Positions 31,473 to 36,501 of a stretch of DNA of 36,501 nucleotides are shown one piece after another. The notes under the pieces were generated by a model. The model saw only the letters and a program-made list of their open reading frames with translations, was not told the DNA's origin and did no database searches. The stretch comes from a virus (taxonomy: Duplodnaviria; Caudoviricetes), in IMG/VR virus record IMGVR_UViG_3300036446_000010, positions 1 through 36,501 of that record; one strand, 5' to 3'. Within the stretch, counting starts at the first letter, position 1; each line of letters begins with the position of its first letter. The position numbers and the translations under genes are program-made.

Positions 31473-31571
31473 TCAGGTGAGGAAGACGAAAAGGGAGAAG
31501 ACGAGGGAGATGCCGGCGAACACGCCGCACACGGCAACCGCCTCGGGAGCGACGCGGGCGAAGGCCTTCAT
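31473..31571 (-). CDS. 32-aa hydrophobic peptide
   Basis: MKAFARVAPEAVAVCGVFAGISLVFSLFVFLT, with an ATGA overlap on the upstream gene and a GAGAGGG RBS. Confidence 0.5.
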   Translation of the reverse strand: MKAFARVAPEAVAVCGVFAGISLVFSLFVFLT

Positions 31572-31915
31572 GGCGCCCTCTCGTCGATAAACCGGGCCCA
31601 GAAGCCTTGCTGCCGGACGATGAGCCGGAGACAGGAGATCTTCCGGTTCAATTTGTGGCAGAGCGCGCCGACCGCCGTGACCGTGTCGTCGGGACCGCCG
31701 TTCGGGTCGTCGCCATAGAGCGTGTCGACGATCTCAGTCCGCGGCACCACCCGGCCCGGTCGGGCTGCGAGCAGGAGGAAGAGGTCGTACTCGAGCGGGC
31801 CCAGGCTCCGAGACCACGTCGTCCCGCGGAAGATCACCCGCCACGGCACGACGATCTGGAGCCGGCCCAGCGGCAGCGCGCGCGGCCGCACCGTCAGGAC
31901 AGGCGGTTGCAGCAT
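31568..31915 (-). CDS. Orphan OmpR/PhoB-type winged-helix DNA-binding protein
   Basis: LGPLEYDLFLLLAARPGRVVPRTEIVDTLYG..KLNRKI..QQGF; no receiver domain. Confidence 0.75.
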   Translation of the reverse strand: MLQPPVLTVRPRALPLGRLQIVVPWRVIFRGTTWSRSLGPLEYDLFLLLAARPGRVVPRTEIVDTLYGDDPNGGPDDTVTAVGALCHKLNRKISCLRLIVRQQGFWARFIDERAP

Positions 31916-32327
31916 GCGTGTGAGCCAGGAGGCGCTGGAATTGCCTGGGGCGCGATCTCTCGTCAGCCGACCAGGTCTCGAGGAGATGAAGCTCGCCGCG
32001 CTCGCGGGCGTAAGCCTCCATCTTGCCCTTCAGTCCGTGGCACTCACGGCAGAGGACTTGGACGTTCGGTCTGTGCAGCCGGAGGGCAGGAAAGTCCCGC
32101 AATGGCAGGATGTGGTCCACCACGTCGGCAAGCACGTCGCAATCCGCTGCCTGATGCCAGCGGCACAACGGATTTTCACGCAAGAACCGTGCAGCGAACC
32201 GAGCCCACCGCTGGTCATAGCCCCTTTCGTGTCGGCTGCCCCTGGTCTCTCTGTCTCGCTGCTTCCTCTGAAGCCGCGGCAGGGCCAGGCGCCTAAACGA
32301 CGGAACCAAGTCCATTGGTCGACGCAT
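31734..32327 (-). CDS. HNH endonuclease (HK97 gp74-like, packaging-associated)
   Basis: RGYDQRW..FLRENPLC..VVDHILP..NVQVLCRECH. The last ~60 codons overlap the wHTH gene. Confidence 0.88.
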   Translation of the reverse strand: MRRPMDLVPSFRRLALPRLQRKQRDRETRGSRHERGYDQRWARFAARFLRENPLCRWHQAADCDVLADVVDHILPLRDFPALRLHRPNVQVLCRECHGLKGKMEAYARERGELHLLETWSADERSRPRQFQRLLAHTHAATACPDGAAARAAAGPAPDRRAVAGDLPRDDVVSEPGPARVRPLPPARSPTGPGGAAD

Positions 32328-32399
32328 ACTCGCGCATAGCCAGAAGCGGTGCCGTAAATTGCAATCCCTGTCAAACGGCTGTTTCCCAGGCCGTATTCG

Positions 32400-32465
32400 T
32401 TTGACCGCCCCCGTCGGTCCTCTAGTTACGGCCCGTTTTTTTAAGTCGGAGGGGCCATCCCTTTA
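32400..32465. other. Candidate cos / packaging-site region
   Basis: Non-coding, lies between divergent operons next to HNH. Minus strand CCCCTCCGACTTAAAAAAACGGG..GACCGACGGGGCGGTC resembles HK97-type cos neighbourhoods. Composition shifts to the right of it. Confidence 0.4.
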
Positions 32466-32651
32466 GGTCTTTGGGCCTGGGCTCTGGGCTGCTGGCCGGG
32501 CAGTGCCACGCCTCTCTACTGCTATAGAGGTATGGCCGCATGAACACTTGACTATCTTTCGTTCTGTGAGCATGCGCGCGTGCCTGCTAATCCGCTTTGT
32601 GGCGTGGCATGGACTGCGGATGGATGCTGCACGAATGCTTGTGTAAGGGAC

Positions 32652-32680
32652 TTGTCGGCGGATGCGTATGCGCCTATATT
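32652..32680 (+). promoter_or_regulatory. Sigma70 promoter of the early operon
   Basis: TTGTCG-17 bp-TATATT. Confidence 0.75.
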
Positions 32681-32843
32681 CGCTTTGCGTCGTGAGACGC
32701 GGCGGCCCGGCATGGACGGGCGGCCCTCTCCCCGGCCCGGCATGGACGGGCTTACGGGGAGGGAGGGAGAGACAGGAAGCAGTGAGGAGAGGCGGCCCGG
32801 CGGAGTACGGGCTTAGCCTCAGAGCGAAAGAGGGAACGGAACG

Positions 32844-33566
32844 GTGCAAGCGATTGTCGCACGGATGGCGGAAGGAAGGGCGGCCCTCGCGGCTGGCCGG
32901 ACTTCCGACGCCGTGCGGCTTTTCGCTTCCGCCCTGTCGCTCGCCAACCGGCATTGCTGGAGCGCGCGCGGCCGCATTCTCGCGTGCCTCAGCTTCGCTC
33001 GCCGCGCGCTTGCGGCCGCAGCTGATGCGGCGGCCCGTGCGGTCCCCGCTCTTGTGGCGGCCGTGGCGGCCCGGGTTGCGGGTTCCGCTCCGGCCGCCTC
33101 TTCCGTTGATGCGGCTCCGGCCGCCTCCCGTGCGGCCCGGGTTCCGGCCGCTTCGCAGCATGAGGTTGCAGCATGTCTCTCGCAGAGCGTCGCGCCGTTT
33201 TCTTCTACTGGAACGCAGTCCGCCGGGAGGGCCGCCGCTCTTCCGATCCGGTCCGGATCGAACGCGGCGAGCGGATGGCACGATGGGCGCTCCGCCGCAT
33301 GGCATGGGCTGCGGGCCGCAGCTGAGGCGGCCCGGGAGGCGGCCCGTTCCGCCTCCCGCCTTCTCTCCCGGCTTTGCGCTGCGACGGTTGCCCGGTTCCG
33401 GGCGGCCCTCGGAACGCATGGCGCGTTCCCGCCCGGCATGACCGGGCGCGCACTCGGAGATGACTCCCATGACGACGATTCCGCAGGAAAATCGCAAGGT
33501 CCGCCGGTCCGTTCGCGAAGAACGGCGCCGCTTGACGCGGTCCGCCCGTCGCATCCGCATCGCTGA
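32844..33566 (+). CDS. Ala/Arg-rich hypothetical protein
   Basis: AGAGGG RBS and GTG start. The first ~60 aa look helical; the rest is low complexity and overlaps the 33469 ORF. Confidence 0.45.
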   Translation: MQAIVARMAEGRAALAAGRTSDAVRLFASALSLANRHCWSARGRILACLSFARRALAAAADAAARAVPALVAAVAARVAGSAPAASSVDAAPAASRAARVPAASQHEVAACLSQSVAPFSSTGTQSAGRAAALPIRSGSNAASGWHDGRSAAWHGLRAAAEAAREAARSASRLLSRLCAATVARFRAALGTHGAFPPGMTGRALGDDSHDDDSAGKSQGPPVRSRRTAPLDAVRPSHPHR

Positions 33567-33591
33567 AAAGCACGCGTTTTTGAACGCGTGA
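33469..33591 (+). CDS. 40-aa arginine-rich peptide (candidate ARM RNA-binding protein)
   Basis: MTTIPQENRKVRRSVREERRRLTRSARRIRIAEKHAFLNA. It is preceded by the same hairpin + GGAG + ATG layout as the two large downstream genes and is absent from the ORF track. Confidence 0.7.
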   Translation: MTTIPQENRKVRRSVREERRRLTRSARRIRIAEKHAFLNA

Positions 33592-33607
33592 CCGGGAGGG
33601 CTTGACC

Positions 33608-33823
33608 ATGAATCCGTCCGCTATCGCTCGACTCCAGGGCTTTGCCTTGCGTCGACTCCAGCTGGCCACGTGCGAGCACGAGTCCGTGCTTCTCCGCCAC
33701 GCGTTGCGCTGCATTCGCCTCGCAAGCACGGCCGTTCGCCATAGCGACTCCCGGGAGGCGGCCCGGCTTCTCGCCTGGGCTGTCGGCTCCGCCCGGGCCG
33801 CCAATGGGGAGTCCATGGCGTGA
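33608..33823 (+). CDS. Hypothetical helical protein
   Basis: GGGAGGG RBS and ATG at 33608. Confidence 0.65.
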   Translation: MNPSAIARLQGFALRRLQLATCEHESVLLRHALRCIRLASTAVRHSDSREAARLLAWAVGSARAANGESMA

Positions 33824-33918
33824 CCGCGCGTGACCTCTTCCGGGCCGCCTTCGATGCGGCGGCCCTCCTCCTCTTCCTCACGGCCGTGCTTGTCGCGGCC
33901 CTCGCACTCAACCCTTGA
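33820..33918 (+). CDS. 32-aa single-TM peptide
   Basis: GTGA overlap with the upstream stop, GGGGAG RBS; MTARDLFRAAFDAAALLLFLTAVLVAALALNP. Confidence 0.55.
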   Translation: MTARDLFRAAFDAAALLLFLTAVLVAALALNP

Positions 33919-33960
33919 ACCTTTGCCCGGCATGCCCGGGCGCAATCCTTGGAGTCCACC

Positions 33961-34857
33961 ATGTCAATGCATGTTCCCTCCCGGTCCGTTCTCGCCTCCC
34001 GTGCCATGCTTTGCGGCTTGACCATTCGCCAATGGTCCGCCCGTCGCCTTGACCGCAAGGTTACTGACGAGGTGAACGCCTCGCACGGCGCCGCAGCGGA
34101 TGCGGGCCGCTACAATAAGGCATTGGTCGCAAAGGACGCACTCGCGGGTATCGTCACGGCCGCCAACGCCGCCCGTTCGCTCCACTATGCCCGGACGTTG
34201 CCATGGCTTGACGAGGGCGCCCGCATCCTCCCGGCGGCGGGATTCGAGGCTTACAGTAACGCCATGCGCGACTTGCGCCACGCGTTCGAGGCGGCCGTCG
34301 CGGCGTTCGTTGCAGCCTATCCGTCATACGTGGACGACGCGCGACTCCGCCTCAATGGCATGTTCGATCCGGCGGACTATCCGGACGCGGCGGACATTGC
34401 GGACCGTTTCGCGTTCGGAGTCCGCATCCTCCCGGTTCCGGACGCGTCCGACTTCCGGGTTGACCTCGCGGACGCGCAAGCGGCGGAGATTCGGGCCGCC
34501 ATAGAGTCCGCCGCACGGGACGCACTCGCCAACGCCACGCGCGACGCATGGCAACGCGTGGCGGAGGTGACGGGCCGAATGGTGGAACGCCTCAACGCAT
34601 ACAAGCCCGGAGGCGCCACGGGCCGCGCGGAAAATGTGTTCCGCGACTCCCTAGTCGAAAACGTCCGGGAGTTGGCCAGCATCCTCCCGGGCTTGAACCT
34701 CACGAACGATCCGGCCCTTTCCCGCATCGCAGAGCGGATGGAGTCGGACCTTTGCCAGCATGACGCGGCGGACTTGCGAGACTCTGACGTGCTCCGCCGC
34801 GACACGGCGAAAGCGGCGGCCGCGATCCTTGCGGAGGTGTCCGACTTCCTCGCCTAG
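33961..34857 (+). CDS. DUF3150-like phage protein
   Basis: WSARRLDRK, TLPW..GARILP, FDPADYP, FRDSLVEN and LNLTNDP motifs; GGAG RBS. Confidence 0.8.
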   Translation: MSMHVPSRSVLASRAMLCGLTIRQWSARRLDRKVTDEVNASHGAAADAGRYNKALVAKDALAGIVTAANAARSLHYARTLPWLDEGARILPAAGFEAYSNAMRDLRHAFEAAVAAFVAAYPSYVDDARLRLNGMFDPADYPDAADIADRFAFGVRILPVPDASDFRVDLADAQAAEIRAAIESAARDALANATRDAWQRVAEVTGRMVERLNAYKPGGATGRAENVFRDSLVENVRELASILPGLNLTNDPALSRIAERMESDLCQHDAADLRDSDVLRRDTAKAAAAILAEVSDFLA

Positions 34858-34965
34858 GCGCGGCCCGCGTCCGCGTCACGTGCCACAAGCGCGCGTGACG
34901 CGTGGCGGACCGCTCCGCGTCCGATCCGGCCCGGCATGCCCGGGCAACCTTTGGAGACTGTCACC

Positions 34966-35958
34966 ATGGCCACGTTTCAGACCGTCCGCGCCGACATTGA
35001 GTGCGATATCGACTCCAACCTCCCCGTCATGCTTTGGGGCGCTCCCGGCATTGGCAAGTCGGACATGATGCGGGAAATCGCGGCGGCCCGTGGCGTGCCG
35101 CTTATCGACTGGCGCGCCAACCTCCGCGAGCCGATTGACGTGCGCGGACTCCCCACAATCGACATTGCGGCCCGGCGGACGGTTTGGCTCCAACCGGAAG
35201 ATTTGCCGGACGCGGACCGCGACGGGCCGGAGGGAATCCTCTTCATTGACGAGATAGTCAACGCCGCGCCGTCGATGCAAGCGGCCCTTTACGGACTCGT
35301 CCTAGACCGTCGCATCGGAGATTACGTGCTTCCGGCCGGTTGGCGCATCGTGGCGGCCGGTAATCGCATGGCGGATCGTTCCTCCGCCTCTCGCATGCCG
35401 CTCGCACTCGCAAATCGCTTTTCGCACTATGTGCTGGAGCCGGACGCGGACGCGTGGCGCGCGTGGGCGGAGGGCGCCGGAGTCCATCCGCTTGTCGTGG
35501 CCTTCATGGGTTTCCGCCCGAACCTGTTGCATGTCATGCCCGGGCCGGACGCCATGGCGTTCCCCTCTCCCCGTTCGTGGGCGGCCGTGTCGCGGATCGC
35601 GGATTCGCCGGACGGCGCCTTGTATCGTCGCGCGGCCGCAAAGGTTGGAGAGGGCGCAGCGGCGGAGTTTCAGGCTTTCGCCAAAGCGTGGCGCAACCTG
35701 CCGTCGCTCGCCACAATCCTTCGCGAGCCGGAAACGGCGCCCGTTCCCTCCGATCCGGCTGCGGTCTATGCCGTCGCCTCCCTTCTCTCGCGCAAGGCGG
35801 ACCGGATCAATCTCCCGGCAATTGTTCGCTATGCGGAACGCCTCGGAGGCGATTACGAGCGCTTCGTTGTGACGGATGCGGCCCGTCGCGACAACGGACT
35901 CAAGGCAACCGGCGCCTATGTGGCGTGGGCGGCCCGCAATGCCGACTCCATGATCTGA
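34966..35958 (+). CDS. MoxR-like AAA+ ATPase
   Basis: Walker A GAPGIGKS, Walker B ILFIDE, AAGNR, ALANRF and FPSPRSW motifs. Confidence 0.92.
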   Translation: MATFQTVRADIECDIDSNLPVMLWGAPGIGKSDMMREIAAARGVPLIDWRANLREPIDVRGLPTIDIAARRTVWLQPEDLPDADRDGPEGILFIDEIVNAAPSMQAALYGLVLDRRIGDYVLPAGWRIVAAGNRMADRSSASRMPLALANRFSHYVLEPDADAWRAWAEGAGVHPLVVAFMGFRPNLLHVMPGPDAMAFPSPRSWAAVSRIADSPDGALYRRAAAKVGEGAAAEFQAFAKAWRNLPSLATILREPETAPVPSDPAAVYAVASLLSRKADRINLPAIVRYAERLGGDYERFVVTDAARRDNGLKATGAYVAWAARNADSMI

Positions 35959-35972
35959 GGGGAGCCGCGACC

Positions 35973-36501
35973 ATGGCAAACGCTAAAGCCCTGCAACGCC
36001 TTAATCGGGCCCGGACCGCTCTAATCATGGACGTGCGCCATGGGTTCTATGGTGCACTCGCCATGCAAATGCCGTTCGTTGAGCGGCCCTCAATCGAAAC
36101 GATGGCAACGGACGGGCGGAGCCTCTTCTACAATCCGGAATTTGTGCTTTCGCTTTCGGAGCCGGTTCTATGCGGAGTCCTTGCGCACGAGGTTGAGCAC
36201 CCCGCGCGCGGTCACCATGTGAGGCGTGGCACGCGCGATCCGCGCGAGTGGAACGTTGCATGCGACTTGGCAATCAACCCGGACTTGCTAGCAGCCGGGT
36301 TCCGGCTCCCCGACGGCGCCTTGTACGACAAGGAATTTGTCGGCATGTCCGCCGAGTCCATCTATGCCGCGCGTGTCAAGCAACGGCAGAACGGACAGCA
36401 GCAGCAGCCCGGACAGCAGCAGCCCGGCAACGGGCCGCAGCAGCCCTCCGGAGGCGGACAGCAGCCGGGCGGCCCTCAGCAGCAGCAGCCCGGCGGACAG
36501 C
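35973..36501 (+). CDS. DUF2201-like putative metallopeptidase (VWA-associated), truncated by window edge
   Basis: Hand translation MANAKALQRL..TMATDG..YNPEF..VLAHEVEH..H..RR..WNVACDLAIN.., followed by a Q/G/P-rich linker. Absent from the ORF track because there is no stop in the window. Confidence 0.88.
   Translation, partial: MANAKALQRLNRARTALIMDVRHGFYGALAMQMPFVERPSIETMATDGRSLFYNPEFVLSLSEPVLCGVLAHEVEHPARGHHVRRGTRDPREWNVACDLAINPDLLAAGFRLPDGALYDKEFVGMSAESIYAARVKQRQNGQQQQPGQQQPGNGPQQPSGGGQQPGGPQQQQPGGQ

Follow-up and report, generated by a model that had tools for sequence, protein, structure and literature searches.

In the lambdoid phages lambda and P22, the short hairpins termed boxB are preceded in nutL by boxA at 8–10 nucleotides (nt) and have the loops GAAGA and GACAA. 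Their N protein is about 110 residues long, its arginine-rich motif (ARM) being followed by segments that contact NusA and polymerase (PMC8632103), and lambda N acts on nutL to repress the translation of its own message (PMC5725501). In hairpins, the major groove is where ARM helices bind (PMC11480772). Aca2 keeps ribosomes from binding by way of hairpins in the 5' untranslated region, and Aca motifs are also found between genes (PMC13551039). The SAS and ESAS of cluster K mycobacteriophages are directional repeats with a group-specific consensus at the starts of non-structural genes; SAS are linear and contain the Shine-Dalgarno (SD) sequence, and little support was reported for ESAS hairpins in mRNA (PMC3203893). 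PeSL cassettes of T4-type phages are repeated stem-loop modules that lie before small non-essential early genes and carry their own promoter and terminator stem-loop (PMC2839356). We analysed a 17-nt inverted repeat, GCCCGGCATGNNCGGGC, in the early region of the virus record IMGVR_UViG_3300036446_000010 (Duplodnaviria; Caudoviricetes), which at 36,501 nt is the entire genome as recorded and is referred to as the window. The repeat is a real element and not a boxB; it is a distinct local form of a gene-start hairpin design that is widespread in phages and apparently undescribed.

The exact repeat was found at 32705, 32735, 33431, 33925 and 34929, on the plus strand in every case, and was absent from 100 shuffles of the window (mean 0.00). 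Allowing two mismatches gave zero extra copies (shuffle mean 0.5, maximum 2). An earlier note made from the sequence had described five copies and one variant in sense orientation behind a TTGTCG-17-TATATT promoter, three of the copies ending 7–9 nt before a GGAG, and all of this was confirmed, the promoter as a promoter-like sequence. The GGAG sites follow the last three copies at 8, 9 and 7 nt and precede the ATG codons at 33469, 33961 and 34966. The promoter, the hairpins, given with their stems in base pairs (bp), and the peptide gene discussed below are as follows.

32652..32680, plus strand: promoter-like site TTGTCG-17-TATATT, agreeing with the consensus at 9 of 12 positions and directed away from the late arm with HNH and terminase
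32687..32700, plus strand: predicted 5'-terminal hairpin with a GNRA-type tetraloop
32705..32721, plus strand: core copy 1, in the leader, 5-bp stem and 7-nt loop
32735..32751, plus strand: core copy 2, in the leader, 7-nt loop on a 5-bp stem, with a predicted basal stem of 9 bp beneath it at 32726–32763
32795..32812, plus strand: variant copy, same stem with an 8-nt loop, 17 nt 5' of the GAGG of an uncertain open reading frame (ORF) at 32844
33069..33083, plus strand: same-stem hairpin with another loop, the degenerate stem of the earlier note
33390..33403, plus strand: same-stem hairpin, loop of 4 nt, not listed in the earlier note
33431..33447, plus strand: core copy 3, 6-bp stem and 5-nt loop, 8 nt from the GGAG of the peptide gene
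33469..33591, plus strand: 40-residue arginine-rich peptide (11 Arg, 2 Lys), predicted single helix, candidate reader, its gene carrying copy 3
33925..33941, plus strand: core copy 4, 6-bp stem and 5-nt loop, 9 nt from the GGAG of the DUF3150 gene
34929..34945, plus strand: core copy 5, 6-bp stem and 5-nt loop, 7 nt from the GGAG of the ATPase gene

A 5-bp stem with a 7-nt loop had been assigned to all core copies. This holds for the two leader copies, with the loop GCAUGGA, and not for the three SD-linked copies, in which the loop is a five-nt CAUGN. The motif set itself was found to be larger than proposed, as the stem recurs under different loops in four further hairpins, at 33069, 33390, 34605 and 36422. 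Exact GCCCG-N3-12-CGGGC stems are concentrated in the last 3.8 kb of the window (nine, versus three in the first 32.6 kb). The 152-nt leader folds into four predicted hairpins with a z score of −3.66, none of 200 shuffles being as stable, and the basal stem under copy 2 is predicted to pair the purine tract behind that copy. Taken alone, the window hairpins have predicted stabilities of −8.9 to −11.1 kcal/mol, and the SD is mostly free or weakly paired in the predicted folds. Sequences flanking the copies are unrelated to one another, which together with the five sense-only copies indicates that selection is bounded to the 17 nt. No copy lies ahead of genes that overlap or closely trail the previous stop (33820 and 35973), and the gene at 33608 has an unrelated hairpin instead. 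Rfam returned four matches at E values up to 10, all far under the gathering scores. A trace of a close relative was limited to one protein, P0120, whose DNA was not found in the viral contigs or in a sample of 201 genomes that was searched twice.

Loci related to the window were collected by searches with DUF3150, which gave 11 loci at first and then 80 viral and 26 genome loci. The exact 17-mer stood at a gene start in none of the first 11. Many relatives carry a short hairpin of their own before the SD of many early genes, meaning that they keep the layout and position and not the window's sequence. Orthologous starts were scored for at least 4 Watson-Crick pairs ending 2–16 nt before the SD; starts with no detectable SD or less than 100 nt upstream were skipped and identical upstream regions were counted once. 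Such hairpins preceded the DUF3150 gene at 27 of 66 distinct starts (10.9 expected from shuffles), the ATPase gene at 36 of 75 (14.1) and the peptide gene at 13 of 19 (4.1). In a count over 107 loci, based on crude gene calls and with 14 duplicates left out, 493 of the 1452 early-strand starts had one, where 254 were expected, versus 118 of the 512 starts on the opposite strand, where 99 were expected. In relatives, too, it is a pre-SD hairpin that comes first behind the promoter. The gene content between hairpins varies widely among these loci. Cultured phages gave only three DUF3150 matches, all of them distant.

The commonest class of hairpins in relatives was investigated by choosing sites according to the loop hexamer RAYYRT and its distance to the SD, not according to pairing. 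Three flanking pairs were present at 109 of 348 distinct sense sites and at 6 of 184 antisense sites, in a class that was picked after inspection of the loci, which are kin. Control hexamers gave 7/131, 7/155, 24/344 and 12/326, i.e. 4–7%. All six pair types are present in the stems of this class, and several different stems surround one loop inside single phages (L142, L143, L246, L258 and L021). The element is thus selected as a structure, with selection on the loop seen for one class only, and a fixed loop on a weak, drifting stem of 3–4 bp suggests recognition rather than stability. Of the expectations of the earlier note, the sense-only orientation, the fixed SD spacing and a positional conservation in relatives are supported; a conserved GCAUG loop is not, as GCATG before an SD had flanking pairs at 6 of 96 sense versus 4 of 95 antisense sites in relatives. 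The anticipated stem covariation is found in the relatives' own hairpin class and not among the window's five copies. Its interpretation as a whole was partly supported.

Other phage-specific pre-SD hairpin codes with different conserved loops were observed in L163, L168, L180–L183 and L146, one locus having them at as many as 17 of its 29 gene starts. At L021:2540–3080, in a phage with a divergent peptide, two-hairpin cassettes begin with a CAUGA-loop hairpin similar to those of the window, and a RATTGT hairpin comes next, ahead of the SD; such cassettes may connect the two classes. In L250, L251, L254, L256 and L257, which encode the peptide, the repeated gene-start motifs are mostly linear and not hairpins.

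We propose, at a confidence about midway between doubt and acceptance, that hairpins in the mRNA are read by a protein and co-regulate the translation of early genes, judging from sequence comparison. This co-regulation of early accessory genes would probably be repression. The operon would be transcribed from 32652–32680 and the inverted repeats would fold as short mRNA hairpins in vivo. A protein recognizing the hairpins 7–9 nt before the SD of early genes would then damp their translation as a set. A hairpin that ends 7–9 nt 5' of the SD lies in the region on which the 30S subunit lands. A protein bound there would crowd this landing site and most simply hinder initiation, as Aca2 does on acr mRNA (PMC13551039), and the leader copies would act as extra binding sites. 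With the 40-residue peptide as reader, its own synthesis would be limited in turn, its gene carrying copy 3. A more specific version, which we regard as unlikely, is a minimal N-like regulon in which an arginine helix of 33–60 residues reads a phage-specific hairpin code before each early gene that is translated separately, its own included. If true, alphaproteobacterial phages would hold gene-by-gene translational control together with a natural library of orthogonal peptide-hairpin pairs.

Several results weigh against the proposal of protein-read hairpins. Under a stricter energy cut-off, hairpins next to the SD were found at 24 of 66 DUF3150, 28 of 75 ATPase and 8 of 19 peptide starts and were equally common 50 nt further upstream (25/66, 31/75 and 10/19), so that hairpins as such are common in these gaps. 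The RAYYRT class, as mentioned, was chosen after inspection among kindred loci, and in L208 and L148 the loops vary while the stems are constant, which fits selection on structure only. No compensatory stem change occurs among the window's own five copies, and the two exact leader copies precede no clear gene. As the hairpins leave the SD uncovered, repression needs a bound protein. Regarding the peptide as that protein, hairpin arrays did not accompany it more often than by chance (11 of 23 loci with the peptide, two weak members among them being counted by eye, versus 35 of 84 in its absence; p = 0.64), and 6 of 19 peptide genes have no hairpin. The peptide was also found in none of 10 array-bearing records, 3 of them at least 90% complete, in searches that held no positive control of their own, the same alignment having found the known gene elsewhere. 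Seven of these ten records form one clade in a quick tree, marked by a phrog_1448 gene, and the negatives are therefore fewer than they look.

The peptide encoded at 33469 would most plausibly be the reader in this phage, an identification that is put forward tentatively. AlphaFold predicts one helix with a predicted local distance difference test score of 92. Similar peptides lie directly upstream of DUF3150 in 7 other loci, with a weak eighth in L146 (E 0.001), the closest being that of L208 at 45%. A profile search gave a family of 67 clusters at 50% identity, seeds included, with lengths of 33–88 residues (aa); a second search, clustered at 90%, also gave 67 clusters, and neither Pfam domains nor functional names were attached to any of them. 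RRxxRR is present in 58 of 67 clusters, and the residues after the arginine motif number 3 in the median and 13 at most (64/67). A degenerate DNA pattern of the peptide matched 15 viral stretches, all 15 being family members, of which 2 were contigs already in the locus set. An identical peptide is annotated as Mpop_2695 in the cultured strain Methylorubrum populi BJ001, and the peptide was present in one of 401 sampled genomes, that one being already known. No assignment was found in Pfam, PHROG, PDB or Atlas. The peptide gene usually carries a hairpin itself (13 of 19), which speaks for a link, and L208, which encodes the nearest peptide, also has the closest stems, in the form of ten GCCC/GGGC-stem hairpins before SDs, a pairing that could be due to kinship. 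The earlier claim of a phage RNA-binding factor gains a plausible candidate in the operon.

Array phages that lack the peptide would need another phage or host protein as reader. The phrog_1448 protein (L153:4957–5454 and 25 other loci) heads the early operon of one clade, has its own hairpin and never occurs together with the arginine-rich peptide in these loci. This exclusion is accounted for by kinship, since its DUF3150 partners are essentially one clade in a quick tree. As an alternative reader it was considered and rejected. Its model matches only uncharacterised phage proteins and none in PDB (E up to 0.001). A helical-looking protein of 50–62 aa with an HPxF motif accompanies phrog_1448.

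Aca1/Aca2, N/boxB, SAS/ESAS and PeSL are the closest known systems, and for nut, N, SAS and PeSL a defining feature is absent here. As in lambda and P22, short GC-stem hairpins lie in an early transcript that also encodes a helical arginine-rich peptide, and the gene of this candidate carries a copy, which recalls the repression by N of its own translation. Unlike the lambdoid arrangement of one site per operon, many copies are tied to gene starts here. No boxA adjoins any core copy. The boxA-like CGCTCTT at 33047, which the earlier note had thought might be chance, is judged to be so, as it is one of 8 in the window (5 plus, 3 minus), none adjoining a core copy and none in the CGCTCTTA form. 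The stem is similar to that of boxB, but the loops CAUGN and GCAUGGA differ from the GNRA-like GAAGA and GACAA. The peptide has the arginine-rich helical motif of N/Nun proteins by composition and predicted helix. Members are 33–88 aa long with the motif at the C-terminus, versus about 110 aa with an N-terminal ARM in N/Nun, and the NusA- and polymerase-binding part is absent. Homology to N was not detected: Pfam N_peptide PF25694 matched 1 of 59 members at E 0.42, the hhalign probability was 3.7%, whole N proteins scored 2–4.5 bits with the family profile and no N protein was among the PDB matches. The N tips of lambda and P22 reached 6 bits, a score exceeded by 3 and 5, respectively, of 500 shuffles. 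The peptide resembles only the RNA-binding tip of N proteins, and in pattern only. With no adjacent boxA, no GNRA-like loop and no N homologue, an identity with boxB or nut is not supported.

The likeness to the Aca1/Aca2 RNA motifs lies in a hairpin by the ribosome-binding site of early genes, in motifs between genes and in a small phage protein, which is a candidate here, with protein and motif varying by lineage (PMC13551039). Aca proteins are DNA binders of the helix-turn-helix (HTH) or ribbon-helix-helix (RHH) type and have an operator at the promoter; the candidate, by contrast, is predicted to be no more than a basic helix, and no acr gene was identified. No HTH or RHH regulator of Aca type was found among the early ORFs scanned, in an operon cut at 36501, and a Trans_reg_C gene lies on the late strand. 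The cargo of the operon is DUF3150, AAA_5 and DUF2201. Like SAS/ESAS, the element is found in one orientation at the starts of non-structural genes after intergenic gaps. It differs from their 13-bp linear consensus containing the SD in being a 17-nt inverted repeat that ends 7–9 nt 5' of the SD, with covarying stems in relatives. PeSL cassettes are similarly placed before early genes; the hairpins of the window have no promoter of their own and no U tract, and only one plus-strand promoter-like site and no downstream terminator-like site were found in 32200–36501.

The main rival, a passive structural module, is possible but doubtful. The hairpin would here bind up GC-rich upstream RNA so that the SD stays open, or shield processed 5' ends from exonucleases, with no reader needed and the copies alike through reuse of a start cassette. 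The stable hairpins and mostly open SD of the window are consistent with this, and so are the freely varying loops of L208 and L148, the unrelated hairpins that occupy this position in other relatives and also ahead of ORF 33608, and the lack of a universal reader among the loci. The fixed loop on weak, covarying stems in the commonest class argues for recognition instead, and the window's unrelated flanks are unlike a duplicated cassette. Two exact leader copies, moreover, lie away from a clear gene. Antitermination of the N/nut type, as entertained by the earlier note, is improbable. The peptide or another factor on the leader hairpins would modify RNA polymerase, and downstream copies would reload it where untranslated gaps invite termination by Rho. 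The presence of three copies in the first 130 nt or so behind the promoter, a 5-bp GCCC stem as in lambda boxB and an ARM-like peptide, with N tips outscoring 497 and 495 of 500 shuffles, agree with such a mechanism. It is opposed by the missing boxA, by loops unlike GAAGA and GACAA, by a peptide that ends a few residues past its motif and by tip scores of a few bits only. Furthermore, no terminator-like site was found downstream of the promoter in the sequenced part (32200–36501) of an operon truncated at 36501, and the first hairpin in relatives is again tied to an SD.

Binding of a prophage repressor to the 17-bp quasi-palindromes in intergenic gaps, as DNA operators or stoperator-like roadblocks, is considered very improbable. 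The arms are invariant around a directional core, two copies lie 30 bp apart just after the promoter, a regulator could be encoded in the missing arm, and stoperators halt elongation at many sites (PMC9283540). However, no copy overlaps the promoter, equivalent sites in relatives preserve pairing and not sequence, and the spacer length varies in the variant; as this 8-nt-loop copy keeps the stem, a hairpin is favoured over an operator. Least to be expected are recombination handles for gene shuffling like the PeSL cassettes of T4-type phages (PMC2839356). The widely differing gene content between hairpins would suit such handles, but 17 nt with unrelated flanks would be short for homologous recombination, there is no promoter per cassette and covariation is left unexplained.

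SAS/ESAS gene-start repeats have had no mechanism since their description, and the element described here has covariation support and a candidate reader. If peptide and hairpin pair, recognition of hairpins by ARMs, known from antitermination, would also serve translation control on its own, and further tethering pairs of the lambda N/boxB kind would become available. If they do not, a widespread undescribed translation-start design and an unannotated small-protein family remain. A search of the open-licence literature yielded no description of the hairpin arrays or of this peptide. The added value lies in this unannotated arginine-rich family, which can be tested as the reader and for which the comparative evidence is mixed.

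Its occurrence elsewhere shows that the exact 17-mer does not by itself serve as a marker. In viral contigs it was found, mostly as single copies, at 121 loci from 30 of 64 parts, with an SD downstream in 10 of 104 distinct sense contexts versus 2 antisense (p = 0.03) and a T tract in 22 sense versus 16 antisense. In metagenome contigs the count was 120 loci, drawn from 10 of 64 parts, and no locus among them matched DUF3150, the ATPase or the peptide. Many of these, judged by eye, lie inside coding sequence reading MPGMxG, which we take to be a receiver domain. Two unrelated contigs (L037:2990–5320 and L048:2960–3400) hold long repeated, PeSL-like intergenic cassettes with the exact 17-mer.

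The window is probably an alphaproteobacterial prophage whose right arm is missing, given that tRNA-Arg (1131–1207) and tRNA-Pro (1598–1674) lie on either side of one gene whose top matches are 72% identical in 301 genomes sampled from the order to which Rhizobium lusitanum belongs. The minus strand carries the head, portal, terminase and HNH genes. A stand-alone winged-helix Trans_reg_C gene, a possible regulator, overlaps the HNH gene at the late-strand start (31568–31915, minus strand). Two promoter-like sites were found (shuffle mean 0.5), one of them on the plus strand within 32200–36501; 32652–32680 is the probable early promoter. The plus-strand gene set from there to the contig end comprises small ORFs, a DUF3150-like protein, an AAA_5 ATPase and a DUF2201 protein, and its remaining features are the following.

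32844..33566, plus strand: uncertain Ala-rich ORF of 240 aa, overlapping core copy 3 and the peptide gene
33608..33823, plus strand: 71-aa ORF, function unassigned, with an unrelated 8-bp hairpin at 33571–33590 ahead of its SD
33820..33918, plus strand: 32-aa hydrophobic ORF, overlapping the stop of the preceding ORF, no hairpin
33961..34857, plus strand: DUF3150-like protein (E 1e-4, under the Pfam cut-off)
34872..34902, plus strand: long predicted hairpin 3' of the DUF3150 stop, no U tract
34966..35958, plus strand: AAA_5 ATPase (phrog_1297)
35973..36501, plus strand: DUF2201_N putative metallopeptidase, cut by the contig end, its SD overlapping the ATPase stop, no hairpin copy

IncC plasmids have an AAA_5 protein that helps them to evade restriction (PMC7498323). 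The Ala-rich ORF has no codon-position bias and one relative at 71%, with two in-frame indels and PGMPGR at the position of copy 3. It may be a real gene with a lost stop or a shadow frame, and a 50-codon ORF with its own SD (33173–33325) is nested in another of its frames. The 8-bp hairpin at 33571–33590 overlaps conserved C-terminal codons of the peptide gene and ends 4 nt 5' of the SD of ORF 33608. A Pro/Ala/Thr-rich repeat ORF with 60-nt periodicity occupies the left end (38–997), and Gln/Pro/Gly repeats lie at the right end (36380–36501), where the assembly breaks. DNA run X1, which may be the source sample, is identical to the leader across 32300–33334 and holds strain variants at both of these window ends.

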